DNA from: Chlamydiota bacterium
GTDB lineage: Bacteria; Auribacterota; JACPWU01
Assembly (NCBI GenBank): GCA_016196885.1
Contig: JACPWU010000033.1
Coordinates: 1-18,376, forward strand
DNA length: 18,376 nt
Direction: 5' to 3'
A program made the position numbers and the translations under genes. Of the stretch, positions 1-15,596 are shown piece after piece. Every line of letters begins with the position of its first letter. Position 1 is the stretch's first letter. Under the pieces are notes generated by a model, which was not told the DNA's origin, ran no database searches, and saw only the letters and a list, made by a program, of their open reading frames with translations.

Positions 1-1
1 A

Positions 2-55: not shown

Positions 56-178
56 TCTGCACGGAGAGACGAGGCGGAATCGGCGCTCGCAGCAGAAATG
101 TGATGAGAAATGCGGGCTAATGAATACAAACCCTAAAGGGGACATCTTGACGTGCTACGAACAGGAAAAACTGTACGG

Positions 179-207
179 TTGAAAAGAAGGCGAAACCCCA
201 TTAGAAT
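179..207 (+). promoter_or_regulatory. sigma70-like promoter for purE-purC
   Basis: TTGAAA (179-184), 17-nt spacer, TAGAAT (202-207). AGGAG RBS at 219-223 precedes the ATG at 229. Confidence 0.45.
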
Positions 208-228
208 ATCTTATCAAAAGGAGCTTCT

Positions 229-702: not shown

Positions 703-1822
703 CGTGAAGGATTTGACCGTTTTGACAAAGCCAGGTGAACATGCCTTAGGGATTGGCCTTTTTCGATTTTCGGACCGCTATTCTGTTTTTGACTGGGGCG
801 AAATGCCGGATCAAATTCCTCATAAGGGGAAGGCGCTTTGTATCTTGGGCGCTTATTTTTTTGAAAAATTAGAGATGCTGGGGGTCAAGACCCATTATCT
901 GGGTCTCGTAGAAAATGGGGAGGTAAAAAAACTTTCTCAATTAAAGAGCCCTGCACAGACCATGAAAGTCCAACTGGTTCGAGTGGTTCGGCCTACTTTG
1001 AAGGACCGGATTTTTGATTATTCCGTTTTTCAAAAAAAGAGAGAGAATTTTCTGATCCCATTAGAAGTGATTTATCGCAACTCTCTCCCCTCGGGTGCCA
1101 GCGTTTTTAGGCGACTGAAAGAAGGAAGCCTCACCCTTCAAGAAATAGGTTTAAAAGAAATGCCTCGACCCGGTCAGAAATTTGAAAAGCCAGTCCTGGA
1201 TGTTTCGACCAAATTAGAAACCATTGACCGCTATCTTTCCTGGAAAGAAGCGGAGAAAATTTCTGGATTAAAGGCAGGAGAATTAGAAACGTTGCAGCGT
1301 CGTACGCTCGAAATTGCTGAACTCATCACGCAGGAGACGGCGCGTGTCGGCCTTTTCAACGAAGATGGAAAAGTCGAATTTGCCTTTGATGAAAAACGCA
1401 ATCTGATGCTTGTGGACGTTTTGGGAACGCCCGATGAGTGCCGATTTACAGTGAAAGACATCCCGGGCTTGACTGGGATGTCTGGATCAGTCCCTGCTCC
1501 CGTAGGGGCAGGTGGCCGAGCGGAGCGAGGGCCCTTGACGTTCGAAGGAATACCCGTGAGTAAAGAAGTGGCCCGGATTTATTATCGAGAGACGGCCTGG
1601 TTTAAGGATGTGGAGGGAGCTAAGAAAAAAGACAAAGTGGGTTGGAAAGAGAAAGTCAAAAGTAAGCCGAATCCACTGCCACCTGAGTTTTTAGAACTTG
1701 TTTCTTTCCTTTATCAAGCGTGTGCCAATGAAATCACTCAACGGGAATGGTTTCGTACACCTCCTCTCAAAGAGATCCTTCTAGGAATAAAGGGTTTCTT
1801 AAATCAAAAGGCATGTTGTTGA
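695..1822 (+). CDS. purC: SAICAR synthetase (phosphoribosylaminoimidazole-succinocarboxamide synthase), long form with an in-frame insertion
   Basis: N-terminal GSVKDL...FRFSDRYSVFDWG and GTPDECRF motifs are typical of PurC. I prefer ATG 695 (AAGGGGA RBS about 8 nt upstream, 8-nt overlap with the purE stop). The ORF track start 677 is the alternative. Confidence 0.88.
   Translation: MGSVKDLTVLTKPGEHALGIGLFRFSDRYSVFDWGEMPDQIPHKGKALCILGAYFFEKLEMLGVKTHYLGLVENGEVKKLSQLKSPAQTMKVQLVRVVRPTLKDRIFDYSVFQKKRENFLIPLEVIYRNSLPSGASVFRRLKEGSLTLQEIGLKEMPRPGQKFEKPVLDVSTKLETIDRYLSWKEAEKISGLKAGELETLQRRTLEIAELITQETARVGLFNEDGKVEFAFDEKRNLMLVDVLGTPDECRFTVKDIPGLTGMSGSVPAPVGAGGRAERGPLTFEGIPVSKEVARIYYRETAWFKDVEGAKKKDKVGWKEKVKSKPNPLPPEFLELVSFLYQACANEITQREWFRTPPLKEILLGIKGFLNQKACC
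1474..1539 (+). repeat. 66-nt GC-rich in-frame insertion in purC, flanked by direct repeats and carrying a conserved hairpin
   Basis: GGGCTTGAC (1465-1473) and GGGCCCTTGAC (1529-1539) bracket exactly 66 nt (22 codons, GMSGSVPAPVGAGGRAERGPLT). Hairpin 1488-1511 CAGTCCCT-GCTCCCGT-AGGGGCAG. GC content is far above the rest of the gene. Confidence 0.45.
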
Positions 1823-1849
1823 CATAACTTTAAAAAAATTAAATTTAAG

Positions 1850-2746
1850 ATGAACCATTCCCAAAATCCAACACAAGAAATTCCAGACTACAAACCCAAA
1901 AGCCTAGGATGGGCCATTGGGCTCTCCATGGTGCTTTCATTGATGAAAGGGGTTGTAGGTCTTTTTTCCTCTTCAGCGGCCTTGATTGCTTCTAGTGTAG
2001 ACTCTCTCATGGATGTGGGCATCTCTTCAGTGAATTATTTTTCCCTTCGAAAGGCTGCAAAACCTCCTGACAGTGACCATGCCTATGGGCATGGAAAAAT
2101 CGAGAGTTTAGCCTCTTACACGCAAGGCGTCCTTTTTATTCTCTTAGCCTTTTTTATCTTGATTGAATCTGTCCGGCGTGCCCAGGCCCATACACCTTTG
2201 ACGAATTCAGGGGGGGTCCTTTTCACAATTGTGTTGGCGTCGCTCGTTAATTTATTCATCACTTTTATGTTGTACAGGGCAGAAAAGAAAACGGGCTCCC
2301 TGATTCTAAAAGCCGAGGGCGTTCATTATTTCATGGACATTCTTTCCTACGCCCTCATTTTTGTTTCCATTCTTTTGGTTCGTTGGACCGGATGGCGAGG
2401 ATGGGACATTGTGGGGGGCATTCTCGTGGCACTTTATGTAGCAGGCCTTGCGGCTCAAATTTTATTTCAGGCGGGAAATGAGTTGGTAGACCGCTCGCTT
2501 CCTACTTCTACACTCGATGAATTAGATAAACTCATCAGAAGGCATGATCCGAGAATTTTAGACTATCACGAGTTGAGAACACGAAAAGTGGGAAGCAAAC
2601 ATTTTATTGATTTTCATTTGGTCTTAAAATCCAATCAGAGCTTTGAAAAGGTTCATGAAATTTCTGAATCTTTGATTGAGAAAATCAAAGAAAAATTTCA
2701 AGATGCAGATGTGACGGTGCATGAAGATCCCGAGGGTGGGATCTGA
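1850..2746 (+). CDS. cation diffusion facilitator (CDF) family metal efflux transporter
   Basis: 298 aa with multiple TM helices, the HAYGHGKIESL motif and a C-terminal cytoplasmic domain typical of CzcD/FieF-type CDF proteins. TGATG overlap with the next gene. Confidence 0.85.
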   Translation: MNHSQNPTQEIPDYKPKSLGWAIGLSMVLSLMKGVVGLFSSSAALIASSVDSLMDVGISSVNYFSLRKAAKPPDSDHAYGHGKIESLASYTQGVLFILLAFFILIESVRRAQAHTPLTNSGGVLFTIVLASLVNLFITFMLYRAEKKTGSLILKAEGVHYFMDILSYALIFVSILLVRWTGWRGWDIVGGILVALYVAGLAAQILFQAGNELVDRSLPTSTLDELDKLIRRHDPRILDYHELRTRKVGSKHFIDFHLVLKSNQSFEKVHEISESLIEKIKEKFQDADVTVHEDPEGGI

Positions 2747-3699
2747 TGCGTTCCGAAGTTCAGGCCTTGCCCAAAATTTTTCTAGAGCGTCTTCGAAAGA
2801 TTATTCCCTCTCATAAGTTTGATGCGGTTGCCAATACCTTTTCTTTGATGCGCCCTACCACTTTTCGCGTGAACACGCTTAAAGCTTCCGTCGAAAAGGT
2901 TCGCGAGAAATTGAGAAATGAAGGATTTCGTCTCAGTGAAGTCTCATGGTATCCCGAGGCTTTTATTTTGCAAGGAAAGGGGTTGAGAGAGCTTCAAGAG
3001 ACAGAAGTTTATAAATCGGGTGAAATTTATGTGCAAGGCCTTTCGAGCATGATTCCTCCTTTGGTTTTAAATCCTCAACCCGGAGAAAAAATTTTAGACT
3101 TAACAGCGGCCCCTGGAAGCAAAACCACTCAAATGGTTTGCTTAATGAAGGGACAGGGCCGCATCCTGGCCAATGACAACAACAAAATTCGCTTTTATCG
3201 CTTGAAGGCGAATCTTGAACTTCAAGGGGTGAATGAGATGGTCGAGCCCACTTTGCGTTATGGAGAATCCCTCGGGCGCGTTTACCCTACAAGCTTTGAC
3301 CGCGTGCTGGTAGACGCCCCGTGCAGTGCCGAAGGGCGCTTCTCTGCCAAGGAACCTTCATCTTACGCCTATTGGAAATTGAACAAAGTTCATGAAATGG
3401 AACGCAAGCAAAGAAAACTTCTTCTTTCTGGAATTTTAGCGCTGAAACCGGGTGGCGTTTTGGTTTATTCCACGTGCACCTTTGCGCCTGAAGAAAATGA
3501 GGGCGTCTTAAACGATGCCCTTGAAAAATTAGGGGAGCAAATAGAGCTAGAATCTATTTCTTTCTCCCTGCCCAATCTCATGAACGGTCTAAAAACGTGG
3601 GAGGAAAAAACATTTCATCCCTCTGTCACGCGCTCTCTACGCATTCTCCCCAACGCCCAAATGGACGGTTTTTTTGTCGCGAAGATGAGAAAAAGGTAG
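2746..3699 (+). CDS. NOL1/NOP2/Sun (RsmB/RsmF-like) RNA cytosine-C5 methyltransferase
   Basis: SAM-binding DLTAAPGSKTT, catalytic DAPCSAEG and YSTCT..EENE motifs. 317 aa, with no NusB-like N-domain. Confidence 0.85.
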   Translation: MRSEVQALPKIFLERLRKIIPSHKFDAVANTFSLMRPTTFRVNTLKASVEKVREKLRNEGFRLSEVSWYPEAFILQGKGLRELQETEVYKSGEIYVQGLSSMIPPLVLNPQPGEKILDLTAAPGSKTTQMVCLMKGQGRILANDNNKIRFYRLKANLELQGVNEMVEPTLRYGESLGRVYPTSFDRVLVDAPCSAEGRFSAKEPSSYAYWKLNKVHEMERKQRKLLLSGILALKPGGVLVYSTCTFAPEENEGVLNDALEKLGEQIELESISFSLPNLMNGLKTWEEKTFHPSVTRSLRILPNAQMDGFFVAKMRKR

Positions 3700-3816
3700 G
3701 TGTAAAATTTGTCCTAGGACCCTCCTTAGGGAATATTCTGCGATAAATAGTAAGACATATATATATTGACATACTTATTTTAAAATGTTCTACTTATCCT
3801 AGAATAGGAGAATAAT

Positions 3817-4053
3817 ATGATTACTGCCATCGTGACCTCCAAAGGTCAAATTGTGATTCCTTCTAAGATTCGGCAACACATGAGTATCAAGAGGGGAACA
3901 AAGCTCTATATCGAAGAGAAGGGAGATGAGCTTATTCTAAGGCCTGTGACGCCTCGATACTTTGAAAAGATTGCAGGGGTTTTGTCCACCAAGGGAAAAT
4001 TAACGAAACTCCTTTTGGAAGAACGAGCCAAAGATCGTAAAAAAGAGGCTTAA
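3817..4053 (+). CDS. vapB: AbrB/SpoVT/MazE-fold antitoxin (VapB-like)
   Basis: 78 aa; N-terminal SKGQIVIPSKIR swapped-hairpin motif. AGGAG RBS. TAATG overlap with the downstream PIN gene. Inverted repeat TCCTA-gaa-TAGGA at 3797-3809 overlaps the RBS region and is a possible operator. Confidence 0.8.
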   Translation: MITAIVTSKGQIVIPSKIRQHMSIKRGTKLYIEEKGDELILRPVTPRYFEKIAGVLSTKGKLTKLLLEERAKDRKKEA

Positions 4054-4451
4054 TGAAAAGAATTCTCGATACCCATGCCCTGATGGTATTCCTTGAAAGA
4101 GAGCCTGAGTTTGAAAAGGTTGAAGCCCTCTTTGTTGCCGCCGTCGAAAAAAATAATCCCCTCCTCATGACAACCGTCAATTTTGGAGAAGTGTATTACA
4201 TTGTCTTACGGGAGTGTGGTTCGGAAAAGGCGCATGAGATTGAAAAAATCATTCGGAGCTTACCCATTGAAATTGTAGATGTAGATGTAACACTTGCCAA
4301 AGAAGCCGGTCGATTTAAGGCCACTCGCAAAATGTCCTATGCTGATTGCTTTACTGCCGCCCTCGCAAAAGTCCACAAGGGTGAGGTGATCACTGGAGAT
4401 AAAGAATTCAAAGAAGTGGAAGATGAGGTGAAGGTTCTGTGGATTCGTTAA
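4053..4451 (+). CDS. vapC: PIN-domain ribonuclease toxin (VapC-like)
   Basis: 132 aa. An N-terminal ILDTHAL acidic residue plus later conserved acidic positions (..SYADCF.., ..ITGDKEF..) fit the PIN fold. Translationally coupled to the antitoxin. Confidence 0.82.
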   Translation: MKRILDTHALMVFLEREPEFEKVEALFVAAVEKNNPLLMTTVNFGEVYYIVLRECGSEKAHEIEKIIRSLPIEIVDVDVTLAKEAGRFKATRKMSYADCFTAALAKVHKGEVITGDKEFKEVEDEVKVLWIR

Positions 4452-4475
4452 CATTTCTTTGGATGGTGAATATTG

Positions 4476-5101
4476 ATGCAAATTGTTAATCTTTACATGG
4501 ATGGTCCAAATTTACTTGGCGCTGTAAGTGATCTGCGGAAAAAACGTGTTTGGATAGATCCTTTTCGTTTATCATCTCATTTGGTTGACAAACAGATTCA
4601 GGAAGTAAAAACGATTTTTTACGCTGAAACACCCTATCCTGAAAATCTCCATAGCCCTGAATCATTTCGCAAACAACAGAGTTTCTTTGGCAGGATTTAT
4701 TCTTATATTCAGAGTCAAAAGGTGATTCACATTAAAGGTAATTATAGAATCGATACAAATACAGTTCCCCTTTTCATTGTAAATCAGCTAAGGACTGAAT
4801 CCAAAATTTAGTTAAAAGCATCAGTTGGAAAAAGCCAATAGAAAAAGGTGGAGATGTGGGTCTTGCGGTACGGCTTGTCCGAGATGCCTTTCGAGATGAA
4901 TTTGATCATGCAATTTTGGTCACTGCAGATCAAGATTTTGCTCCCGCAGTGAATATTGTTGTTATGGAGGCAAAGAAGAGAGTCAGTATTGCTTATGTGA
5001 ATAATAGCTATCGAAACGCTCTTGCATTAAGAAGCAAATGTAGAGGCGCAGAATTTATCCAAATAACCAGAAAAATGACAGATGCTTGTGAAATAAGTTA
5101 G
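4476..5101 (+). pseudogene. NYN/LabA-like (DUF88) domain gene, split by a frameshift
   Basis: The N-part (4476-4811) has IVNLYMDGPNLLGA. The C-part has EKGGDVGLAVRLV...HAILVTADQDFAP, the canonical NYN motifs. The second frame is open from 4799 and the first ends at TAG 4809-4811, so the shift lies within 4799-4811 (ATCCAAAATTTAG). Confidence 0.7.
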
Positions 5102-5122
5102 GGGGAGTCATGAAAACAGGTT

Positions 5123-5142
5123 GGGCGAGGTTTCCCTCGCCC
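5123..5142 (+). terminator. GC-rich stem-loop after the NYN gene (terminator-like but without a U-tract; could instead be a protein-binding palindrome)
   Basis: GGGCGAGG-TTTC-CCTCGCCC, a perfect 8-bp stem. A second palindrome CCCTATA-N12-TATAGGG lies at 5146-5171. Confidence 0.3.
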
Positions 5143-5186
5143 GGTCCCTATAATCGCAAGCAACTATAGGGAAGTTGAAAATGAAA

Positions 5187-5202
5187 TGGCACTTCGCTTG
5201 CT
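5187..5202 (+). promoter_or_regulatory. sigma54 (RpoN) -24/-12 promoter, perfect consensus, upstream of maf
   Basis: TGGCAC (5187-5192), TTCGC, TTGCT (5198-5202) equals TGGCAC-N5-TTGCW with correct GG/GC spacing. It lies 108 nt upstream of the maf ATG. The window also encodes a GAFTGA-containing activator. Confidence 0.55.
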
Positions 5203-5309
5203 TAATGTTTAAAACACCTGTTCTTTGCAGAGCGATACTATCATTTAAATAGGTATTCTTTCAATAAGAGTGTTATGAAAAATCATAATACATTCTTAAA
5301 GAGAATGTT

Positions 5310-5915
5310 ATGAGTGATCATTTCTATTGTTATCATCCTCCTTTCCTCTATCTTGCCTCTGGCTCCCCTCGTCGCAGAGAAATTTTAGAAAAGATGAAAA
5401 TTCCTTTTCAGGTTGTGTCTTCTTCCTATTATGAGAGAAATTTCAAGGGAGTTGAGCCTGAAGAGTGGGTTTTGAGACATGCCTTGGGAAAGGTGAGAAA
5501 GGCCAAGGTTCCGAAATCAGCGCAATGGATTTTAGGCGCAGACACGATGGTGTTTTGCAAGGGAGAGGCGTTGGGCAAGCCGAGGTATTTAAAAGAGGCT
5601 TTGAAAATGATGAAGGTTTTGTCCGGGCAGAGACATGCAGTATGGACGGGGGTTGTTTTGTGGGATCGGATCAATGATCAGCTTCTGACCGGATGTGCTC
5701 AGACCCATGTTTGGATAAAACATTTAACGGAAACGGAGATTCTTCATTATTTTCAAAAGGTGAATCCCCTCGATAAAGCTGGGGCGTACGCGATTCAAGA
5801 GGGGCCCAAGATTGTTGAGAGGATTAATGGATCTTATTCCAATGTTGTTGGACTCCCTAAGGAGTTGCTAAACATGATGTTGGGTAGCATTTCTCTATTA
5901 AAAAAGAAGAATTAG
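5310..5915 (+). CDS. maf: Maf-like nucleoside triphosphate pyrophosphatase (septum formation inhibitor family)
   Basis: LASGSPRRREIL N-terminal signature, GADTMV, KAGAYAIQ motifs; 201 aa. Confidence 0.9.
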   Translation: MSDHFYCYHPPFLYLASGSPRRREILEKMKIPFQVVSSSYYERNFKGVEPEEWVLRHALGKVRKAKVPKSAQWILGADTMVFCKGEALGKPRYLKEALKMMKVLSGQRHAVWTGVVLWDRINDQLLTGCAQTHVWIKHLTETEILHYFQKVNPLDKAGAYAIQEGPKIVERINGSYSNVVGLPKELLNMMLGSISLLKKKN

Positions 5916-5920
5916 GCAAC

Positions 5921-5955
5921 ATTGAGCAATAAAAATTGGCATGATATTGCTCAAT
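5921..5955 (+). terminator. stem-loop after maf (weak terminator candidate)
   Basis: ATTGAGCAAT (5921-5930) pairs with ATTGCTCAAT (5946-5955), a perfect 10-bp stem with a 15-nt loop. No clear U-tract follows. Confidence 0.3.
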
Positions 5956-6027
5956 TCTAAAGCATGCTTCAGGGGTGAATGGATTTTTCTATACGCTAAA
6001 CGCTACACACTGTACGCTGTTTTTGCC

Positions 6028-7140
6028 ATGATCAAAAAATACCGTTTCGTAGATTTTGCTGCTCGGGGTCAATCAGGATTCCGCAATCATGTCGTTTCGA
6101 TTGAGGAAGTGCCCTTACTCATAGAGCAGTATCAATCCACTGAGTGTTTCTCTACTTATTTTTTCTACACGGATGAAATTTTTGCCTACATGAATACGCA
6201 TATCGAAAAAGATCGTCCGTCAATTGCGGGGTTTCCCGGAAAATTATGGGCGCCTTTTTTACCCTTGGATATAGATGCGGTGGATCTTGAGAAGGCTTTG
6301 GATGGGGTACGTGTGATTGGGAAAACTTTGATTCAGGAATGGAAAATTCCAGAAGGAGCCTGTCATTTTTATTTCAGTGGTTCGAAGGGTTTTCATATTC
6401 TTTTAGATGTGCGATTGTTCGGGAAAGTCCTTCCCAATCAGCATTTGCATCAGATTTTTTCGACGCTGCGAGAAAATTTAATGTATGAACTTCCGCTTTT
6501 TGATCATGCCTTGGTGGACTTGACGATCAAAGATGCCGTGCGCCTTTTGAGGCTTTCGAACACGCTTCATGAAAAATCTAAGCTGTATAAAATTTCTCTG
6601 AGTGCCGAAGAGATTTTTTCCAATACGATTTCAGAAATTTTAAAGAAGGCGAAGAAACCGCGGCCTCTTCTTTACACAGATGAGACGGGTTTGGTTTCAA
6701 AAGTTTCGGTGACAGCCCACCCTCGGTTGTCTAAAATTTTTAAACATGTTCGTGCGCTCGTTCGTAAATACACGCTAAAGCCTTTTACGTATCGCCTGAG
6801 CGTTCAATCAGAAAATCCTTCAGAATTTTTGTGCCCAGCCTTTTTAAAAATGTATGAGAGCTCTGTCGAACCAGGTTTAAGAAATAATTCTGTGATTCGA
6901 TTGCTGTCGGAATTTCGCCTGCATGGATTGAGTCTGGAAAAGTCCAGAGAGTTGATTCTGGCATGGAATGAGTCCCTTATCGTTATGGTTATCATGATTC
7001 GATTCTTCAGGCGTTTTGCCCGTATCAGAATATCGAAGAGTGTGAAAAATGGCACCAGAACAGGAAATAAAAATGATTTGGGATGTGGCGATTATCGGGG
7101 CCGGAGCAGCCGGCCTGATGACGGCGATCACTTGTGGTGA
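6028..7140 (+). CDS. archaeo-eukaryotic primase (AEP) superfamily primase-polymerase with PriCT-like C-terminal domain; the 3' end is probably frameshifted
   Basis: Motif I LPLDIDA, motif II FSGSKGFHI, motif III region IKDAVRLLRLSNTLHEKSKLYKI. PriCT-like CPAF...GLRNNSVIRLLSEF..G.S.E....ILAWNE. After AWNES the ORF-track frame becomes low-complexity hydrophobic/basic junk overlapping the next gene by 92 nt. The -1 frame from 6972 reads VPYRYGYHDSILQAFCPYQNIEECEKWHQNRK and stops at TAA 7068-7070, just before the next gene's ATG at 7073. The start is uncertain (6028 preferred; 5941 lies inside the upstream hairpin). Confidence 0.7.
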   Translation: MIKKYRFVDFAARGQSGFRNHVVSIEEVPLLIEQYQSTECFSTYFFYTDEIFAYMNTHIEKDRPSIAGFPGKLWAPFLPLDIDAVDLEKALDGVRVIGKTLIQEWKIPEGACHFYFSGSKGFHILLDVRLFGKVLPNQHLHQIFSTLRENLMYELPLFDHALVDLTIKDAVRLLRLSNTLHEKSKLYKISLSAEEIFSNTISEILKKAKKPRPLLYTDETGLVSKVSVTAHPRLSKIFKHVRALVRKYTLKPFTYRLSVQSENPSEFLCPAFLKMYESSVEPGLRNNSVIRLLSEFRLHGLSLEKSRELILAWNESLIVMVIMIRFFRRFARIRISKSVKNGTRTGNKNDLGCGDYRGRSSRPDDGDHLW

Positions 7141-8425
7141 AGCTGGACTTAAAGTCCTTCTTTTAGATGGGAGAGAAAAAATTGGGGCTAAAATTTTAAT
7201 GTCGGGTGGGACGCGTTGCAACATAACGAATCGGGATGTCTCTGAAAGAGATTTTGGTTCAGAGCAAAACAGGGTCGTTCGAGACGTGTTGCGCAGTTTT
7301 ACCTCAGAGGCTTCCTTGAGATTTTTTGAGCAATGGGGCGTCCATGTTTTGATGGAAGAAGGCGGAAAATATTTTCCGGATACCCACTCTGCAAAAACAG
7401 TTCTAGACGGCCTGATTCAGGGATGTTCTAAAAAAGGCGTTCAGCTCAAAACAAATCAAAAAGTTAGCGAAATTCAATTTCGAGAAAATCACTTTAAGGC
7501 ATATGCGCTTGGCTCAAGTATTCTTGATTCGTCAAGCGTAGTCGCCCGATTTATCGGGCAATCCATGCATGGCCCCATAAATGGGGCGACTACAAATGTG
7601 CATATGCCTAATCTTTTTTTGATTTCAGGAAAAGGATTTTCTTATGAAGCCAAAACCGTGGTTCTGTGTACCGGGGGACTGTCCTATCCTACGACAGGCA
7701 GTGACGGCGTTGGATATGAAATTGCAAAATCTTTTGGCCATTCTCTTGTTTTGACCACTCCGGCTCTTACGCCACTTTTGACAAATGATTCAGCTTGGAA
7801 AGCCTTAATGGGTGTGTCCCTGCCCGTGAAACTCACTCTTTCTCTCCATGATCAGAAAAAAGCCTCTTTTGAAGGGTCCTTTCTTTTTACACATTTCGGT
7901 TTTAGCGGAACGCCGGTCCTGAACATCAGCCGTCATTGGGTTCGTGAGCCCGATAAAAATGCTCTAAAGATGATGGCCAATTTTCTCCCTTCTGAAAGTC
8001 AGGAAGGTTTCCGTCAAAGTTTTGTTTTGGCGGCTCAAAAATCTTCATCCAAAACCCTGAAAAATTTTCTTTCAGAAAAACTTCCCGAACGATTTGTCGA
8101 AACTTTTTTAAAGAAAAACAAGTTAGCTGAAAATTTAGTTTTGAATCAATTAAAACGCGAAGCACGGGAAAGTTTGATTCAATCTCTTTTTTATTATTCT
8201 TTGCCAGTGACAGGTGTTTATGGTTATCAAAAGGCAGAAGTGACAGCTGGAGGCGTGGATCTACTTGAAGTTGATCCAAAAACATTAGAATCCAAGCTTC
8301 AGCCTGGCCTCTTCTTTGCCGGAGAAATCTTAGACGTAGACGGCCGCATCGGCGGATTTAATTTCCAATGGGCCTGGTCCAGTGGGGTGGTGGCGGGAAG
8401 AGGTGTGGTGAAGAAAATGCTTTAG
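7073..8425 (+). CDS. BaiN/HI0933-family NAD(FAD)-utilizing flavoprotein, carrying an in-frame palindromic element
   Basis: DVAIIGAGAAGL dinucleotide fold, MSGGTRCNITN, VVLCTGGLSYPTTGSDGVGY, GFSG, GGVDL..., GEILDVDGRIGGFNFQWAWSSG, all typical of the HI0933 family. ATG 7073 has an AGGAAA RBS; the track start 7049 is the alternative. Confidence 0.85.
   Translation: MIWDVAIIGAGAAGLMTAITCGEAGLKVLLLDGREKIGAKILMSGGTRCNITNRDVSERDFGSEQNRVVRDVLRSFTSEASLRFFEQWGVHVLMEEGGKYFPDTHSAKTVLDGLIQGCSKKGVQLKTNQKVSEIQFRENHFKAYALGSSILDSSSVVARFIGQSMHGPINGATTNVHMPNLFLISGKGFSYEAKTVVLCTGGLSYPTTGSDGVGYEIAKSFGHSLVLTTPALTPLLTNDSAWKALMGVSLPVKLTLSLHDQKKASFEGSFLFTHFGFSGTPVLNISRHWVREPDKNALKMMANFLPSESQEGFRQSFVLAAQKSSSKTLKNFLSEKLPERFVETFLKKNKLAENLVLNQLKREARESLIQSLFYYSLPVTGVYGYQKAEVTAGGVDLLEVDPKTLESKLQPGLFFAGEILDVDGRIGGFNFQWAWSSGVVAGRGVVKKML
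7497..7609 (+). mobile_element. MITE/REP-like palindromic element, copy A, inserted in-frame in the flavoprotein gene
   Basis: Terminal inverted repeats AGGCATATGC (7497-7506) and GCATATGCCT (7600-7609). The internal core 7538-7593 is GTAGTCGCC...GGCGACTAC. It is identical to the core at 16084-16128 except for one substitution and an 11-nt insertion that creates the palindrome CCATGCATGG. Confidence 0.7.
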
Positions 8426-8429
8426 CTTA

Positions 8430-8942
8430 ATGTCCAAAATCATTTCTCGTCAATTAAAACTTAAATTAGGCAAACAGCGTTTAGACTTGCTGGTCGCTCA
8501 TGGCAAGGAATTGTGTCTGATTGAATTAAAAGTAACAAGATTTTCCAATGAGTATATCTCCCAGGTGAGTGATTACAGGGATGAGCTTACCAAACTTCAA
8601 ATGCAGGGCGAGCGAGTCGATGGCCGACTGCGAGTTTTTTTACTGGTAACTGGATTAAGTAATGAAGACAAAAAACTATGCAACTTACACAACATAGAAA
8701 TTATTGAATATAAACCTATAGATGTTTTGAAGCAATATTTTCAGGACTTGTCGACTGTTGCACCATTTTTGAAAATTAAACCAAATGATTATGGTGTTTT
8801 CAATATTGGTCTGATAAACAGGGTCTTGAATCAACTGAGTCTTGGGAACTCAAACGAAGAAACACTTTCATCAATGACAGACTTATCGAGCGTAAGATCC
8901 ATTTTATACCAGTACAGTCTTTGGAATTTATTCTATGGTTGA
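8430..8942 (+). CDS. PD-(D/E)xK nuclease-fold protein resembling the NucS/DUF91 catalytic domain, with an uncharacterised C-terminal region
   Basis: RLDLLVAHGKELCLIELKV (D...ExK), followed by QVSDY and LRVFLLVTG...NIEIIEY, matches the NucS C-domain strand order. Only about 18 aa precede the catalytic Asp, so it may be 5'-truncated. It starts 4 nt after the upstream stop. AT-rich. Confidence 0.5.
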   Translation: MSKIISRQLKLKLGKQRLDLLVAHGKELCLIELKVTRFSNEYISQVSDYRDELTKLQMQGERVDGRLRVFLLVTGLSNEDKKLCNLHNIEIIEYKPIDVLKQYFQDLSTVAPFLKIKPNDYGVFNIGLINRVLNQLSLGNSNEETLSSMTDLSSVRSILYQYSLWNLFYG

Positions 8943-9231
8943 AAGTGCCTTCATTTTGTCAAGAAACAGTTATCTCATCAGTTTTGAGGACTTGATAGAA
9001 ATGTTTAAAATAATCAGTGGCAAAAGGTCTGAATGGAAGGCTAAAAAATCTCAGAGCACTGCGACGTATACTTTTCTGAATTTTGCCATTGATTTAGGCT
9101 TACTCGGTAAAATTGGAAGACAAATAGTTATCACGCCCGCTGGCTTCAGATTTATATTAATGTTGCAGTTACACAAAAGCATTGAGATGATTGAGTCGCT
9201 TTCGCTTAGACAAATGGAGGATTCACGATGA
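8935..9231 (+). CDS. hypothetical protein, possible winged-helix region
   Basis: 98 aa. 8-nt overlap (ATGGTTGA) with the upstream ORF. TYTFLNFAIDLGLLGKIGRQIVITPAG resembles a wHTH recognition helix plus wing. This frame is open from 8896, so it could be the frameshifted continuation of 8430-8942. Confidence 0.4.
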   Translation: MVESAFILSRNSYLISFEDLIEMFKIISGKRSEWKAKKSQSTATYTFLNFAIDLGLLGKIGRQIVITPAGFRFILMLQLHKSIEMIESLSLRQMEDSR

Positions 9232-9494
9232 GACAGGCTTTTTTGAAAATGGAATGGAATATCTTAAATAATGAAATGTTCACCAATAAACCTAAAAGAG
9301 AACCCTTTTCAGAGAAAGTTATAAAAAGGCGAGAGCTGCTTTTATTAGCTCAGCACCTACTCTCAGATATTGAATATGGAAAATCCAGTAAATTTAGGAG
9401 ATTCAAAAGTGAGCTATACCAAAGAACAATGAAAATTTACTTTTCTTGGTATAAAAAGCACGACATCAATGGACATATCATTTGGGAAAAGTAA
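9228..9494 (+). CDS. hypothetical small basic helical protein
   Basis: 88 aa. ATGA overlap with the upstream ORF and a strong GGAGGA RBS 7 nt upstream. No recognisable motif. Confidence 0.45.
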   Translation: MRQAFLKMEWNILNNEMFTNKPKREPFSEKVIKRRELLLLAQHLLSDIEYGKSSKFRRFKSELYQRTMKIYFSWYKKHDINGHIIWEK

Positions 9495-9615
9495 AACGAT
9501 TTACAGCTTTAGGAAAAGGTTAGCCCCTCACCACTATCCTTTCAATTCTTTTTCGTCTGGTACCTCCAAGATCCATAATTGCTGTATGGAAGGTGTATAA
9601 AAATATTACATTACA

Positions 9616-9644
9616 TTGACAGATTTAAATACATTTGCTATGAA
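9616..9644 (+). promoter_or_regulatory. sigma70-like promoter reading through element B toward the XRE/Panacea gene
   Basis: TTGACA (9616-9621), 17 nt, TATGAA (9639-9644). The -10 hexamer is contributed by the left end of the repeat element. Confidence 0.3.
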
Positions 9645-9767
9645 AGTGAGGCTCATTTTGTAGTCGCCCCATTTATGGGGCTGCCCGATGAATCGGGCGA
9701 CTACAAAAAAAGCATGATTGGGAGAACTTTCATCGCACGCGATGATCTCGAAAGATCATTGAAATTG
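9635..9767 (-). mobile_element. 133-nt MITE/REP-like palindromic element, copy B
   Basis: Reverse complement of 16021-16153 with 128/133 identity and no indels. Core 9660-9704. Arms TGCTATGAAAGT / ACTTTCATCGCA pair. An extra hairpin ATGATC-TCGAAA-GATCAT lies at the right end. Confidence 0.85.
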
Positions 9768-9790
9768 ATATAAGTGAGATGTGAAGTGCC

Positions 9791-10579
9791 ATGGATAAAA
9801 TTTCTCTTAGACTGGGTCAAAAAATTAAAGAGCTTAGATCTCAATCAGGTTTGAGTCAGCAAGATCTTGCGGATGAGCTTGGAGTTCCTAGACCTTCCAT
9901 CTCTCGAATGGAGGCTGGGGAGAGAAAAATATCGGCGGAGGAATTGATAAAACTGGCTCATTTATTTAATGTTTCAGTTGAAAATCTGCTGAATTTGGAA
10001 AAATCTTCAGAGGTGGTTTTAGAGAGAGGAAAAAGGAAGGAGGGTGAGGGCATGAAAACTCAGATGAGAATCAGTGTGCCTCAAAAAAATGTTTCTAAGT
10101 TTAAAGAAGTGTTGCTGTACATTTTAAATAAAGTTGGCTCAAAACCAAATATAGGTGAAACGGTTATTTATAAGCTTCTTTATTTTATCGACTTTGATTT
10201 TTATGAGAAATATGAAGAACAACTGATTGGGGCAACCTATATTAAAAATCATCATGGGCCGACCCCCGTTGAGTTTATAAAAATTGTTGAAGAGATGATT
10301 CAATCAGGACAGGTAGAGAAGGTGAAGAGCGAGTTTTTTAAATATCCTCAGACTAAATATTTACCGCATAAGAAGGCGGATCTTACCAAACTGAAGGCTC
10401 ATGAGATTGAATCCATTGATGAGGTCCTCAACAAGCTTTCAGATATGACTGCAACGCAAATCAGTGATTATTCCCATGGAGATATTCCGTGGATTACGGC
10501 CGAAGATCAAGCAGTGATTAACTACGAGTCTGTTTTTTACCGCGCGCCCCAATATTCTGTTCGAGATTACGATTTATGA
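9791..10579 (+). CDS. XRE-family HTH fused to a Panacea (DUF4065, SocA/PanA-like) antitoxin-type domain
   Basis: N-terminus [43 protein letters not shown] is a Cro/C1-type HTH. The C-terminal [32 protein letters not shown]... matches the DUF4065/Panacea pattern. Confidence 0.8.
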
Positions 10580-10692
10580 GATCCGTCGCAATAAGGCTGA
10601 TTTTTAGATTTTCCGCAGCGGCACCCATGATACGTTCCAGGTTCTAGATTTAAAACAGCGGGTCTTTTCGCTGCAATCGTAGGTTCACTCAT
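10567..10692 (-). CDS. small CDGSH-type [2Fe-2S] domain protein (41 aa, probably 3'-truncated); not in the ORF track
   Basis: Hand translation of the minus strand: [41 protein letters not shown]. It matches C-X-C-X2-S-X3-P-X-C-D-G-S-H exactly. AAGGAGG RBS 5 nt upstream of the ATG (10692-10690). The stop at 10569-10567 comes two residues after the His ligand. Convergent 13-nt overlap with 9791-10579. Confidence 0.65.
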
Positions 10693-10901
10693 TTTTCCTC
10701 CTTGTCTTGATGGGAGTGCATCGGAAATCCGGTACTGGCCTTAATGATGTCTTCATTGTGAACGAGCAAGAGGCCATGATGGGTGTTTTGAGGATCATGG
10801 TGCTCACCAAAACTGAAACTGTGCCAGGAATCAAGCCAATGCGTTTGAGTATAAAAACGGTCTTTCGCGCAATGAAGCGTTAAGTTGCTTAACGTTTTCA
10901 T
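10689..10901 (-). pseudogene. pirin N-terminal fragment (truncated cupin)
   Basis: WLDSWHSFSFGEHHDP...[22 protein letters not shown] is the pirin N-domain up to the first two metal-binding His. The ORF then reads KEEK-stop directly into the RBS of the CDGSH gene. The remaining roughly 160-230 aa of a normal pirin are missing. Confidence 0.7.
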
Positions 10902-10939
10902 GTTTTTAATTCTAACATATTTCAGTGTAAGATCATCTC

Positions 10940-10969
10940 TTGATCTTCAAGTGAGGGCCTTGTTATAGT
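10940..10969 (+). promoter_or_regulatory. sigma70-like promoter for rfbC with an overlapping palindrome
   Basis: TTGATC (10940-10945), 18 nt, TATAGT (10964-10969). Palindrome AAGATCA-N5-TGATCTT (10929-10947) overlaps the -35. Confidence 0.3.
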
Positions 10970-10986
10970 GGGCAAGCGAGAAAAAT

Positions 10987-11529
10987 ATGAAATTTACAAG
11001 ATTAAACATTCCCGATGTCATTTTAATTGAGCCCAAGGTTTTTGAGGATAGCCGGGGATTTTTTTATGAGTCTTATCGAGAAGATGTTTTTGCCCAAAAT
11101 GGGATCCCTGAGAAATTTGTTCAGGACAATCATAGTAAATCTCAGAAGGGGACGTTGCGCGGGCTTCATTATCAGATAGAGCCTAGGGCTCAAGGGAAAT
11201 TAGTTCGCGTGGTGAAGGGCGAGGTTTTTGATGTGGCGGTAGACATTCGAAGAGGGTCTAAAACTTTTGGTCAATATGTGGGGCAAATTTTAAGCGAGGA
11301 AAATAAGCAGATGATGTATGTCCCTCCAGGTTTTTCCCATGGCTTTTTGGTATTAAAAGACGGGACAGAATTTGTTTACAAATGTTCTAATTTTTATTCC
11401 GCTTCTCATGAGCGAGGTATTTTGTGGAATGATCCTTCGATTGGGATTGCCTGGCCGAAGCTAGATTGCGATTACATTTTTTCCCAGAAGGATCAAAGGT
11501 GTCCGACCTTGAAAGATGTGCTGCGATGA
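10987..11529 (+). CDS. rfbC: dTDP-4-dehydrorhamnose 3,5-epimerase
   Basis: 180 aa. FEDSRGFFYES, RGLHYQ, KLVRVVKGEVFDVAVDIRRGSKTFG, PPGFSHGF and YKCS..Y are the canonical RmlC blocks. No rfbA/B/D nearby. Confidence 0.9.
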   Translation: MKFTRLNIPDVILIEPKVFEDSRGFFYESYREDVFAQNGIPEKFVQDNHSKSQKGTLRGLHYQIEPRAQGKLVRVVKGEVFDVAVDIRRGSKTFGQYVGQILSEENKQMMYVPPGFSHGFLVLKDGTEFVYKCSNFYSASHERGILWNDPSIGIAWPKLDCDYIFSQKDQRCPTLKDVLR

Positions 11530-12530
11530 AATTTCCCTTTCCACTCACTCCTGAAATTAAATTTGCCTTAGAGGCGGTGCGTAAAGCTTCTCAGCTGACC
11601 GTTGCTGTGCAGAATGAAATGAAGCAATTTTCTTCTCTCCAAAAATCAGATCAGTCTCCTGTGACAGTCGCGGATTTAGCGGCCCAGGCCATTGTGGCAC
11701 ATTTACTGGAAGAAAAATTGCCCCAAGATATTCTGGTGGGTGAAGAAAGTTCCGAAATGTTGGGCCTGGTGGAAAATCGTAACACCCTGGATCAAGTTTT
11801 AGAGCATGTAAAAAGATTTTTTTCACATGCTACATTAGACGGTGTTTGCGATTGGATTGATCGAGGGACCGCAGAGCCCGCCTATCGTTTCTGGACTTTG
11901 GATCCTGTGGATGGAACGAAAGGATTTTTAAGGGGGGATCAATATGCGGTGGCGCTGGCGTTCATTGTAAATGGAAAAGTGGAAATCGGTGTTTTAGGGT
12001 GCCCCAATTTAAAAGAGGCAAAATTTCAGGATGTGGGTGGAGTGGGTTCCTTGGTGATTGCGATTCGGGGAAAAGGTTGTTGGAGTAGCATCTTAAAGAC
12101 GGAACATTTGAGTTTTTTACCTCTTCATGTTTCTGATTGCCGCGAGCCTCGGGATGCGGTGCTCATGCGTTCCTATGATCGGTCTCACACCAATGAAGCC
12201 CAGCTGGAAAAGATCAAGGATGCCCTCCATCTTCAAAAACCGCCTATTCGACTGGACAGTCTCTCAAAATATACAGTTTTGGCCTCTGGAAAGGCAGATC
12301 TCTTTTTTAGGTTGCTTCCGATGGACCGGCCTGATTATCGGGATTATATATGGGATCAAGCGGCGGGCGATTTAATTTTGCAAGAGGCCGGAGGAAAGGT
12401 TACGGATTTAGATGGAAAGGCGCTTGATTATACGGCTGGTAAAAAACTTTTTAACAATCGAGGGGCTTTAGCTTCCAATGGCTTTCTTCATGAGGCGGCC
12501 TTGAAGGCAGTGAAGGAAGAGGGGATATAA
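11526..12530 (+). CDS. 3'(2'),5'-bisphosphate nucleotidase (PAP phosphatase, HAL2/CysQ-type, inositol monophosphatase superfamily)
   Basis: WTLDPVDGTKGFLRGDQYAVALA and WDQAAG motifs. I prefer ATG 11526, which forms an ATGA overlap with the rfbC stop. The track start 11466 would overlap rfbC by 64 nt. Confidence 0.85.
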   Translation: MKFPFPLTPEIKFALEAVRKASQLTVAVQNEMKQFSSLQKSDQSPVTVADLAAQAIVAHLLEEKLPQDILVGEESSEMLGLVENRNTLDQVLEHVKRFFSHATLDGVCDWIDRGTAEPAYRFWTLDPVDGTKGFLRGDQYAVALAFIVNGKVEIGVLGCPNLKEAKFQDVGGVGSLVIAIRGKGCWSSILKTEHLSFLPLHVSDCREPRDAVLMRSYDRSHTNEAQLEKIKDALHLQKPPIRLDSLSKYTVLASGKADLFFRLLPMDRPDYRDYIWDQAAGDLILQEAGGKVTDLDGKALDYTAGKKLFNNRGALASNGFLHEAALKAVKEEGI

Positions 12531-12566
12531 ACTTTCGAATCGTTTGTGAGATGAAAATGGGAGGCA

Positions 12567-14006
12567 TTAAAAAAATATCCATGTCACCAAAATGAAAGAA
12601 GAAACGAGAATGGGTAGGCTGTAGCAGAAAATGTAGCCGAAGAAAGAGGGCATTTTGAAGCCATATTTTTCGGCCATGGATTTGACCATGAAATTAGGGG
12701 CGTTCCCAATATAAGTGTTCGCACCCATAAAAACGGAACCCAAGGAAATCGCCTTTAAATAAGTGTGATTCTCTGTAATGAGTTGGGCAATGGCCATTCT
12801 TTCCGGGACATTGGGATAAAGACGGCCTAGGGAGGTGGAAAGAAAAGTAAGATACGTGGGTGCATTGTCCAAAAAGGAAGAAAGGACGCCTGAGGCCCAG
12901 AAAAAATGGGCAGGACTTTTGACGGCGTGAACGATCATACAGAGAGATCCTTTTTCACCCGCTTCCAGAATCGCAAGAGCCGGGATCATGGTTGTAAAAA
13001 TAGCGCCAAAAAGAATGGCCACTTCATGAATGGGTCCCCATGAAAATTCATTTTCTTTGTGAATGTGCTCTTTCGTGGTAAACAAAGCGCCTGTCAGCAT
13101 CAAAAGTAGAAGAACATCACGCGCTACATTTTCCGGATGAATTTCAAGGCCCTCGATTGTCCAGGCGCCGGGATGCCAAAGCCCCGAAAGAATCACGGCC
13201 AGTAAAGTGCCTCCGAGAAAAAGAAAATTGTGTAATCCTTCTATTTGAATAGGATGTTTTGTATCTGTATGTGATTTTATTTTCACATCCTCTTTGCTCC
13301 AAAAAAAGGTGTCGACTGCAAAATAAATTCCCAGAAGGAGAACACTCAAGAAAAGCATTTCTTTCCAAAGCCTTAAAGTCCAGAGAAACGGGACACCATG
13401 AAGGAAACCTAAAAAGAGAGGCGGATCTCCCAGAGGGGTCAGACATCCGCCGATGTTGGCCACTAAGAAAATGAAAAAAATCACTGTATGCACTTTGTGA
13501 CGACGATGGCGGTTGGCCCGTAGGATGGGGCGAATCATCAACATCGCAGCCCCCGTGGTTCCAATCCAGGAGGCAAGCCCGGTCCTGATGGAGAGCAAGA
13601 CAACATTGGTTTTGGGTGAACCCAGCAAGGTTCCTTTAATGTAAATGCCTCCGCTGATGGTGTAAAGGGTTGCGATCAAAATCATAAAGGGGATATAGTC
13701 TAAAATAGCCGTGTGCAAAAGGCTGTGCAGGGCTTGAGAGCGATAAAAATAAAGGAATGGAATTGCGAGGGTGAGGCTCCAGGCCGCTACAATTTTTGGA
13801 TGATGATGATGCCATACATTCGCTGCCAAAAGAGGAAAGAGGGCGATGGAGAGCAAAACCCCCATAAAAGGGAGAATGCTCCAGGCAGGGAGAAGCTCTC
13901 CCAGATTTTGGCCTGAGCTAGCATCTGCGAAGGCATGAGAAGCGAAAAAAAAGAGTGAGAAAAAGATGCTGAAAGAAATCCGTTTAAGTTTTTTTGTGAG
14001 AAACAT
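12567..14006 (-). CDS. ion-transporter superfamily permease (ArsB/NhaD/CitMHS-like, putative Na+/H+ antiporter type)
   Basis: About 479 aa of polytopic membrane protein with an N-terminal signal-like segment (MFLTKKLKRISFSIFFSLFFFASHAFA). I prefer ATG 14006, preceded by AAGGA; the track start is TTG at 14045. Confidence 0.7.
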   Translation of the reverse strand: MFLTKKLKRISFSIFFSLFFFASHAFADASSGQNLGELLPAWSILPFMGVLLSIALFPLLAANVWHHHHPKIVAAWSLTLAIPFLYFYRSQALHSLLHTAILDYIPFMILIATLYTISGGIYIKGTLLGSPKTNVVLLSIRTGLASWIGTTGAAMLMIRPILRANRHRRHKVHTVIFFIFLVANIGGCLTPLGDPPLFLGFLHGVPFLWTLRLWKEMLFLSVLLLGIYFAVDTFFWSKEDVKIKSHTDTKHPIQIEGLHNFLFLGGTLLAVILSGLWHPGAWTIEGLEIHPENVARDVLLLLMLTGALFTTKEHIHKENEFSWGPIHEVAILFGAIFTTMIPALAILEAGEKGSLCMIVHAVKSPAHFFWASGVLSSFLDNAPTYLTFLSTSLGRLYPNVPERMAIAQLITENHTYLKAISLGSVFMGANTYIGNAPNFMVKSMAEKYGFKMPSFFGYIFCYSLPILVSSFILVTWIFF

Positions 14007-14065
14007 TTCATTTTCCTTAATCTTTGGAATAATTTTGACGCTCAAAGTACCATCTTTAAAAGCAA

Positions 14066-14141
14066 GATCCTTCGCTGTCGCTCAGGATGACAACACTTTT
14101 GCTCGTCATTCTGAGGCCCTGTATTTTAGGGCCGAAGAATC
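14066..14141. repeat. doublet of REP-like palindromes of the GTCATYCTGAG / CTCAGGATGAC type
   Basis: GATCCTTCGCTGTCGCTCAGGATGAC (14066-14091) and GTCATTCTGAGGCCCTGTATTTTAGGGCCGAAGAATC (14105-14141). The second forms a 13-bp interrupted stem followed by TGTTTTT on the + strand. Confidence 0.5.
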
Positions 14142-14166
14142 TGTTTTTAAAAGCAAAATTCTTCAC

Positions 14167-15588
14167 CTATTGCTTCCACTCAATCCCCAATTTTTTGATT
14201 CTATATTTTAAAATGCGCGGTGTCACCTTCAGGATTTGTGCAGTTTCAGAAAATTTTCCCCCTGTTTTCTGAAGGGCCTCGAGAATCATTTTTCTTTCGT
14301 GTTCTTCAAGAATATCCTTGAAGGATTTTCCCTGATCTAAAAAAGAGGCGTTCGGGCATTTTTCAGAAAATCCTAAAACCGCACTTCGGAATTCTCGAGG
14401 CAAGTGAAGGACATCGAGAACAAGGGGTCTCAATTTTCGATGAGAAAGAAACATGGCCTCCAGAATATTTTTCAGTTCTCGCACATTGCCTGACCAAGAA
14501 GCCTGCTTGAAACAATCCATCAATGTGGGAGAAAATTCAGGCAATATTTCTAAGCCCATTTCTTTCTGAAGTATTTGAGTCCAGTAATTCACAAGCGATG
14601 GGATATCTTCTTTTCTTTCTCTCAAGGGGAGAATGTGAATAGGGAAAATGCAAATGCGATAATAAAGGTCTTTTCTGAATTCCCCTTTTGCAATCGCTTG
14701 CGTGAGGTCTTTGTTGGTAGCGGAAATCAGTCTTACATTGAGCGCAATGGGTTTGGTCCCGCCAATTCGAGAAATCTTCTTTTCTTCGAGTACTCGCAGT
14801 AGCTTTGCTTGAACATTCATTTCAAGCTCTCCAATTTCATCCAGAAAAAGGGTCCCATTTTGAGCCTGTTCAAAAGCACCCTTTCTTTGATGTGAGGCAC
14901 CTGTGAAGGCTCCTTTTTCGTGACCGAAAAGTTCGCTTTCAATGAGTTCACGCGGCAAGGCGGCACAATTAATCGCGATAAAAGGTCCAGAGCGATGAAA
15001 ACTAGAATAATGAATCGCCTTGGCGACCAATTCCTTTCCCGTTCCTGTTTCTCCCGTAATGAGGACCGGAGAATTTGCCGATGACGCCTGCAAAATTTTT
15101 TCACGCACCTCTTTAATCGCAAATGAAATCCCAATCAAGTGTTCAGGGTGAAACCGTTCGGCCACTTCTCGGATGAGAGAAAGATTCTTTTTTTTAAGAA
15201 GAGTGGACTCAACGGCGTGATCGAGAATTTGCTGAATCTCATCTTTCATGAAAGGTTTGACGATGTAGTCATAGGCTCCCAGCTTGATAGCCTTTACGCC
15301 GGTGGGTGCATCTCCCACCGCACTCACCACAATAATAGGAAGATCGGGCCTCGATTTTTTCATTTCTGGAATGGCTTCAAGGCCGCTCATGCCAGGCAGG
15401 CAAATGTCCAGGGTAACCACATCGGCCTCACCGCCATTTTTCAAGTAGTCGAGCGCTTCCTCGGCGTTGACTGAAAAATGGATCCGAAAAAGATGCTTAA
15501 GAGAGAGCTCCAGGGCCTCTCGAACGCCATCATCGTCTTCGACTGCGAGAAGAGAAGGTAAGGAAATATCTTTGATGAGCCATGTCAT
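14167..15588 (-). CDS. sigma54-dependent response regulator (NtrC family: REC - AAA+ - Fis-type HTH)
   Basis: REC LLAVEDDDGV...DVVTLDICLPGMSG. Walker A GETGTGKE, GAFTGA motif (EKGAFTGA), C-terminal ETAQILKVTPRILKYRIKKLGI. I prefer ATG 15588. The track's TTG 15666 extension runs through operator-like palindromes and a promoter. Confidence 0.9.
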   Translation of the reverse strand: MTWLIKDISLPSLLAVEDDDGVREALELSLKHLFRIHFSVNAEEALDYLKNGGEADVVTLDICLPGMSGLEAIPEMKKSRPDLPIIVVSAVGDAPTGVKAIKLGAYDYIVKPFMKDEIQQILDHAVESTLLKKKNLSLIREVAERFHPEHLIGISFAIKEVREKILQASSANSPVLITGETGTGKELVAKAIHYSSFHRSGPFIAINCAALPRELIESELFGHEKGAFTGASHQRKGAFEQAQNGTLFLDEIGELEMNVQAKLLRVLEEKKISRIGGTKPIALNVRLISATNKDLTQAIAKGEFRKDLYYRICIFPIHILPLRERKEDIPSLVNYWTQILQKEMGLEILPEFSPTLMDCFKQASWSGNVRELKNILEAMFLSHRKLRPLVLDVLHLPREFRSAVLGFSEKCPNASFLDQGKSFKDILEEHERKMILEALQKTGGKFSETAQILKVTPRILKYRIKKLGIEWKQ

Positions 15589-15596
15589 GGAAAGGG

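Follow-up and report, generated by a model that had tools for sequence, protein, structure and literature searches.

A palindromic element of 114 nucleotides (nt), here called copy A, lies in frame inside a flavoprotein gene of a metagenome-assembled genome (MAG) named Chlamydiota bacterium and placed in Auribacterota by GTDB (assembly GCA_016196885.1, contig JACPWU010000033.1). The window is the whole stretch of DNA that was analysed, positions 1 to 18,376 of this contig on the forward strand. Our data indicate that copy A is very probably a tolerated in-frame insertion of a mobile non-coding palindrome, with features of a miniature transposable element with inverted repeats (MITE) and of a repetitive extragenic palindrome (REP), into an intact host gene. 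An earlier sequence-only reading of this DNA proposed that a structured palindrome is tolerated in frame as in the Rickettsia palindromic elements (RPE), and this is supported by a gap in the homologues, by the repetition of the core of the element and by a folded model of the protein. A frame check confirmed that the open reading frame (ORF) at 7049-8425 stays open across the element. The in-frame palindrome is real, but it measures 114 nt (7496-7609) and not the 113 nt first given. The gene and the parts of copy A are as follows.

7049-8425, plus strand: host gene, an HI0933-like NAD(P)/FAD-dependent oxidoreductase of 458 amino acids (aa), insert included, assigned from Pfam and structure matches
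7496-7609, plus strand: copy A, a palindromic MITE-like element of 114 nt (codons K150-P187), recognised by the lack of a counterpart in 116 of 120 homologues, by its fold z score and by homology to copy D
7487-7495, plus strand: putative target-site duplication of 9 base pairs (bp), left copy, AATCACTTT, codons N-H-F, 7/9 match to 7610-7618
7610-7618, plus strand: putative 9-bp target-site duplication, right copy, AATCTTTTT, codons N-L-F, 7/9 match to 7487-7495
7497-7508, plus strand: left terminal inverted repeat, AGGCATATGCGC, same terminus in copy D
7598-7609, minus strand: right terminal inverted repeat, read on that strand as AGGCATATGCAC, same terminus in copy D
7538-7559, plus strand: REP unit 1, GTAGTCGCCCGATTTATCGGGC, with GTAG as its head and then a 7-bp hairpin
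7560-7571, plus strand: spacer of 12 nt, AATCCATGCATG, where the other two window copies have a 1-nt spacer
7572-7593, minus strand: REP unit 2, read on that strand as GTAGTCGCCCCATTTATGGGGC

Comparison with homologues shows that the segment is an insertion. Between the strand 'KVxxIxF' and 'LISG' the window protein has 54 aa versus 12-15 aa in 116 of the 120 homologues, which is the gap that the sequence-only reading had predicted. The segment is not conserved in the homologues, and the core of the element is present in intergenic DNA. The added material was first put at about 38 aa; it amounts to 41 codons (123 nt, 7496-7618), made up of the 114-nt element and a 9-bp direct repeat. Removal of 7496-7618 results in a 417-aa protein, the usual length in the family. 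Three further HI0933 homologues, P0002, P0052 and P0066, hold other, unrelated in-frame palindromic inserts in the same turn, and that of P0002 is a multi-hairpin element (-58.9 kcal/mol). Judged by these unrelated palindromes, the beta-hairpin turn is a tolerant site, struck four separate times in four lineages. The inserts of P0002, P0052 and P0066 are found at 495-608 of locus L075, about 1950-2030 of L076 and about 1915-1950 of L077, and the repeat types among them are GTCATCCTGAG...CTCAGGATGAC and CCCTCTCCCAGAGGGAGAGGG.

A Pfam search matched the 458-aa protein to PF03486 (9.5e-77) and PF22780 (5.4e-29). The protein is identical to an NCBI protein (P0001, accessions MBI1882786.1 and MBI3266571.1). 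An AlphaFold2 model built from a 120-sequence alignment has a mean predicted local distance difference test score (pLDDT) of 91.2 and a predicted template modelling (TM) score of 0.87, and the solved structures closest to it are 2i0z, 2gqf, 4cnj and 3v76 (target-normalised TM 0.87-0.93). Residues 146-188 are modelled as coil between strands 139-145 and 189-194; the 10-residue block means of pLDDT are 42-52 over residues 151-180 and 79 for residues 181-190. Structure prediction, a check that the sequence-only reading had suggested, places the insert in a low-confidence loop between two strands. All 36 invariant alignment columns are kept, as they must be with the window protein itself among the aligned sequences, and agreement was also seen by eye at nearly invariant residues (GAGAAG, residues 17-22). 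All three single nucleotide polymorphisms (SNPs) within the gene between two MAG assemblies are third-position and synonymous. Judged from the sequence and the model, the flavoprotein gene looks intact, and the insert-bearing protein is predicted, as the most likely case, to be still produced and functional. In the predicted protein, the peptides across the insert junctions would be ENHFKAYALG and NVHMPNLFLISGK. The insert with its downstream T-run was also considered as an intrinsic terminator (a hairpin with a T-run 3' of the hairpin), and this was rejected because the terminator scan does not flag the site.

Copy A has the ends of a MITE. The terminal inverted repeats described in the sequence-only reading are present, with AGGCATATGC at 7497-7506 and GCATATGCCT at 7600-7609 as the 10-nt inverted ends. 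Copy A resembles a second element, copy D, which lies just outside the window, and terminal inverted repeats of 10-12 nt, AGGCATATGC[G/A]C, occur at both ends of both copies. The sequence GGCATATGC occurs four times in 21 kb versus 0.05 expected. Copy D has the termini TTGGCATATGCAC ... GTGCATATGCCT, has GGCATATGC[G/A]C and GTGCATATGCCT in common with copy A and can be aligned with it over the full length. The flanks of copy D form a perfect 9/9 repeat, AATAAATAA/AATAAATAA, with boundaries exactly equivalent to those of copy A. Inverted ends together with a 9-bp flanking repeat are a MITE signature. Compared with shuffled sequences, the whole 114-nt copy A folds strongly both as DNA (-35.4 kcal/mol, z -7.9) and as RNA (-62.7 kcal/mol, z -8.6). 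Stop codons occur in four of its six frames, and the frame in use is the sole open plus-strand frame. A reading as intein or intron was rejected because the element is too small, has no Rfam family and has the sequence of an intergenic repeat. A permissive E-value scan of the whole window matched no Rfam family, and a tRNA scan of the window found none.

The core of copy A is repeated in the following elements.

9635-9767, plus strand: copy B, a 133-nt intergenic element with a different shell and its core at 9660-9704, a 96% inverted repeat of copy C
16021-16153, minus strand: copy C, a 133-nt intergenic element with its core at 16084-16128, 26 nt downstream of the stop of a minus-strand kinase gene
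1107-1249 of locus L001, just outside the window: copy D, the same element type as copy A, between two MacB/FtsX genes, with shared termini and end-to-end homology to copy A

In agreement with the sequence-only reading, the 56-nt core at 7538-7593 matches the core at 16084-16128 and, in reverse complement, that at 9660-9704; the only differences are one T/C change and 11 additional bases in the spacer. These extra bases were taken for an insertion that makes a palindrome; they are real, but a variant of the spacer is the better interpretation. The CATGCATGG spacer of copy A recurs in a doublet at L010 3910-3965, from a MAG with the label Actinomycetota, which suggests either that distant bins share a subfamily or that the binning is in error. 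In copy D the spacer between the REP units is 20 nt. The 22-nt unit GTAGTCGCCCNATNNATNGGGC has six exact occurrences in the window versus 0.01 expected, and none of 200 shuffles reached six. The readable part of the MAG, about 28 kb, contains four doublets, all of them head-to-head (HH) dimers. Copies B and C are each downstream of a gene and are equally oriented relative to the transcription of that gene; they have no flanking direct repeats. Within this single genome, the same doublet forms the centre of two or more distinct palindromic shells. The 3' end of a Logan read-level contig (L079) falls inside the REP core of copy C (...CATTCTGTAGTCGCC), and this break is consistent with a multi-copy repeat in that sample.

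Two GTAG-tagged REP hairpins, arranged head to head, make up the core (GTAGTCGCCCRATTYATYGGGC). Each half consists of GTAG, two bases and a 7-bp hairpin, with the GTAG heads outward, and all six units in the window start with GTAGTC. The 7-bp stems, GCCCGAT/ATCGGGC and GCCCCAT/ATGGGGC, fold as 6 bp and a 4-nt loop, and since the stems differ (CCCGAT versus CCCCAT) the doublet is a heterodimer. A GTAG-tagged REP has a terminal GTAG next to a palindrome with a stem of 5-13 bp and a loop of 2-20 nt, its families have tens to thousands of genomic copies, and inverted dimers are frequent, with the GTAG ends outward in the HH form (Di Nocera, De Gregorio and Rocco 2013, PMC3733652). The core matches this definition of an HH dimer. 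The minimum-free-energy fold of the single-stranded 45-nt cores of copies B and C is the three-way junction that had been proposed (-15.4 and -15.6 kcal/mol), and their long hairpin is 1.2-2 kcal/mol less stable. The proposal of a fourth hairpin in copy A did not hold: the best fold of this copy is one long imperfect hairpin, and the fourth hairpin does not form. In copy B, the three-way-junction core folds within a longer stem with an additional hairpin (z -6.6).

The insert was also present in a second assembly. The window matches contig JACOUD010000007.1 (GCA_016178005.1, a MAG that carries the label 'Chlamydiae bacterium') except for six SNPs and one replacement upstream of the flavoprotein gene, where 47 nt in the window (6816-6862) stand against 67 nt in the contig (L001 9858-9924). 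The insert region is identical in both. The replacement falls within an ORF at 5941-7140 (no Pfam match), which changes from 399 aa to 299 + 81 aa, and it has the appearance of variation within the population or of gene decay.

The REP unit of copy A occurs in many other genomes. A pattern with 18 specified bases was scanned over a representative-genome collection of 596 Gb and matched at least 72 loci, whereas about 17 chance matches are expected over the whole collection by our own estimate. Only three of these loci look like chance matches; L045, L054 and L057 were excluded as matches inside coding sequence, and the L057 match lies in a 720-aa ORF that we take to be kinase-like from a motif seen by eye, with no Pfam run. 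The other loci are complementary at the free positions. An inverted partner 1-20 nt away is usual among them, and there are 43 doublets in the at least 72 loci. GTAG was required in the scan pattern, so the GTAG of the foreign units is by construction; position 5, which the pattern did not require, is T in 46 of 50 distinct units. When partner units were chosen by proximity alone, 26 of 48 paired at 7/7 stem positions versus 6.5% in the control. Compensatory exchanges between C-G and T-A occur in these partners at four positions of the stem, while the ATTYAT loop is constant. The REP hairpin is conserved by structure across genomes. Among the matches listed, the MAG labels span more than 12 phyla and include Stahlbacteria, WOR-3, Zixibacteria, Chloroflexi/Dehalococcoidia, Nitrospinota, Nitrospirae, Ignavibacteria, Saprospiraceae, Bacteroidetes, Poribacteria, Elusimicrobiota, Planctomycetota, Actinomycetota, Doudnabacteria, Chlamydiae, a member of the candidate phyla radiation (CPR) and others.

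A second in-frame case was found in this set. At 5319-5368 of L073, in a Planctomycetota MAG, a doublet of the same family is in frame in a 771-aa HEAT/prenyltransferase-like protein and contributes 'VVAQFIEPNSPMNRATT' and flanking residues. These 25 aa are missing from 10 of 10 homologues, one of them 78% identical. In total, two in-frame cases occur among about 45 doublet sites examined. Viral contigs gave no match, and plasmids gave none for copy A or copy B. A metagenome scan for the shell of copies A and D (GGGCGACTACN{3,25}GTGCATATGCC) gave nine matches, all in one conserved coding gene with the motif SPGDYHRVHMP, presumably phosphatidylserine-decarboxylase-like, and these were rejected as not being the element.

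Could the element have inactivated the flavoprotein recently, leaving the ORF open by luck? The element with its duplication is a multiple of three and one of the three insertion phases is stop-free, so that about one third of insertions stay open by chance. The core of copy A is one substitution from that of copy C, and in a young insertion decay may not yet be visible. A strong RNA hairpin is predicted in the middle of the ORF, and the product of the gene, disrupted or intact, is a prediction. On the other hand, the family-invariant residues are all kept, with the reservation that the window protein is itself in the alignment, and all three SNPs between the two MAGs are synonymous. The insert falls exactly at a beta-hairpin turn while the rest of the AlphaFold2 model is confident, full-length genes with other inserts in this loop persist in three further lineages, and no terminator was flagged at the insert. 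Disruption of the gene is disfavoured by these observations and we consider it unlikely. An error of assembly or binning, in which a mis-join put an intergenic repeat into the gene, might be suspected because the sequence comes from short-read metagenome assemblies and Logan contigs end at these repeats. Yet both flanks belong to one gene with an exact reading frame, and the shell of copy A differs from copies B and C, so it was not copied from either. Because two independent assemblies that differ elsewhere by SNPs and an indel hold the identical insert, and two protein accessions exist, such an artefact is scarcely credible.

A function of its own for the insert, either as a surface peptide or as a regulatory structure in mRNA or DNA (RNase processing, translational pausing, gyrase or IHF binding), would agree with the conservation of the sequence and structure of the REP core over many genomes and with the identical insert in two MAGs. 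Roles of REPs at both the RNA and the DNA level have been reported (PMC3733652), and gyrase and IHF binding is reported for E. coli REPs. However, the encoded peptide is predicted by AlphaFold2 to be disordered and is a mere translation of the repeat, no Rfam family was matched, and unrelated repeats in the same loop elsewhere speak for tolerance and not for a specific function. Exaptation of this kind is therefore very improbable, and the insert itself is most likely a neutral passenger sequence.

In the tolerated insertion that we favour, a non-autonomous 114-nt palindromic element would have transposed into the HI0933-family gene. The element would consist of a MITE-like shell with 10-12-nt inverted ends around a head-to-head GTAG REP heterodimer. 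Its insertion would have duplicated 9 bp of the target, and as element and duplication together make 123 nt, or 41 codons, the downstream frame would be kept; the phase of insertion would be that of the sole stop-free plus-strand frame of the element. The landing site would be the tight turn between two strands that run antiparallel in the FAD-binding domain (residues 139-145 and 189-194), where the extra 41 residues would loop out, so that the allele was not removed by selection. The element may have survived because its length keeps the frame, its phase is stop-free and its site is a surface turn.

Two kinds of enzyme may have been involved. For the shell, the 9-bp repeats and inverted ends seen in copies A and D point to a DDE-type transposase that works in trans, to which we give about an even chance. 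For the core, the GTAG heads favour an HUH tyrosine enzyme of the REP-associated tyrosine transposase (RAYT) type, which is possible as the agent of this insertion, though a less probable one. A total of 1,687 ORFs taken from the loci were searched for RAYT genes with E. coli RayT and with an iterated profile. No RAYT was found in the readable part of the MAG. The ORFs between neighbouring doublets encode RRM, isochorismatase and argininosuccinate synthase proteins, and no transposases are among them.

Several observations weigh against a tolerated insertion of a mobile element. An allele without the insert was not found: neither of two possible versions of the 417-aa empty-site protein is present in the protein collection searched. 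Production and activity of the insert-bearing protein are predictions from sequence and model, and the mid-ORF RNA structure (-62.7 kcal/mol) could hinder translation or draw RNases. The copy counts cover about 28 kb of the MAG and not the whole genome. The shell of copies A and D is known from two copies, so that the case for a duplication has n=2, and the repeat of copy A is imperfect (7/9). The searches, which for this MAG cover about 28 kb, found no insertion sequence (IS) with matching ends and no cognate RAYT. The only RAYT among the at least 72 foreign loci, at L011 1503-2048 in a Stahlbacteria MAG (PF01797, 4.8e-10), is flanked by a different GTAG REP, GGAGTAGGGCGTTTACGCCC, while the same genome holds many GTAGTCGCCC-type units. 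In other genomes, bare doublets showed no 9-bp flanking direct repeats above a shuffled-flank control. This last result is in keeping with mobilisation of the core by a RAYT or IS200-like route and of the shell by another.

Insertion of this kind is a documented phenomenon, of which copy A is a fresh example. With the GTAG-tagged REP HH dimers, which also go by the name of doublets of bacterial interspersed mosaic element (BIME) or REPIN type, it shares a GTAG head, a 7-bp stem, a short loop and outward ends 1-12 bp apart (Di Nocera 2013). It also shares with GTAG-tagged REPs the heterodimer with unlike stems, the mostly intergenic position downstream of genes, the occasional in-frame dimers of 20-30 aa and the occurrence in the Planctomycetes-Verrucomicrobia-Chlamydiae (PVC) superphylum. 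Opitutus terrae is a relative within the PVC superphylum. The statement in the sequence-only reading that in-frame insertions outside Rickettsia are rarely described was too strong, because intragenic GTAG and CGTC REP dimers encoding 20-30 aa were already catalogued in 2013 in several species, mostly O. terrae and Rickettsia conorii (PMC3733652). The doublet differs from those described in that it lies inside larger shells, one with inverted ends and a 9-bp flanking repeat, and in that no RAYT was found.

Copy A is RPE-like in behaviour but is not a member of an RPE family; it is a GTAG-tagged REP doublet in a MITE-like shell. As with RPE, an in-frame palindromic repeat is tolerated in a surface loop of a conserved gene and other copies are intergenic. 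The element, from another phylum, has a GTAG tag, in contrast to the CGTC tag of the short intragenic REPs RPE-4 and RPE-6 of R. conorii (PMC3733652); RPE-1 was not compared. MITEs such as Correia/NEMIS, Nezha and ERIC-type elements are likewise about 110-145 nt long, non-coding and present in multiple copies, with terminal inverted repeats, a flanking direct repeat, a strand that folds and an occasional in-frame insertion. Unlike them, the shell of copies A and D was seen in two copies with no parent IS with the same ends identified, and its centre is a REP doublet that also occurs alone and inside another shell. The case is a structurally interpretable one outside Rickettsia, in which a selfish palindrome would lengthen a conserved enzyme without destroying it. 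The HI0933 beta-hairpin turn, with four unrelated inserts in four lineages, offers a natural map of insertion tolerance, and such insertions explain odd low-complexity stretches in MAG proteins, such as 'VVARFIGQ...PINGATT'.

The phylum breadth of the REP unit is the more interesting lead. The unit GTAGTYGCCYRATTYATYRGGC was not found in the text or supplements of PMC3733652, with figures outside the search, nor in the collection of papers searched, and it may have been described before. Most described GTAG-tagged families are lineage-restricted and REPIN-RAYT systems are described as vertically inherited and lineage-specific, whereas a near-identical unit is found here in MAGs of more than 12 phyla. 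We tentatively suggest, as one of the less probable outcomes, that GTAGTYGCCYRATTYATYRGGC is an undescribed REP family that is near-unchanged across these phyla, nests in other palindromes and repeatedly expands surface loops in frame. If true, either the element and its enzyme would have spread horizontally, or a host factor that is deeply conserved would recognise the element. The cross-phylum spread, if not already described, bears on the strict vertical inheritance of REP systems.

One foreign locus has a different arrangement of units. At 5836-6027 of L068, at least six REP units are arranged head-to-tail with a strict 34-nt period (the 22-nt unit and a constant 12-nt AGGTTTCTCTCT), and this tandem arrangement differs from the usual inverted doublets. 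In the window, a toxin-antitoxin-like gene cluster with MazE-type antitoxin, PIN and NYN domain genes is found at 3800-5100, and an HTH-SocA/Panacea gene (9791-10579) directly follows copy B. Copies B and C bracket 6.25 kb of ordinary genes, among them HTH-SocA, RmlC, inositol phosphatase, a CitMHS transporter and a sigma-54 regulator. Their inverted arrangement could allow inversion of the bracketed 6.25-kb segment.

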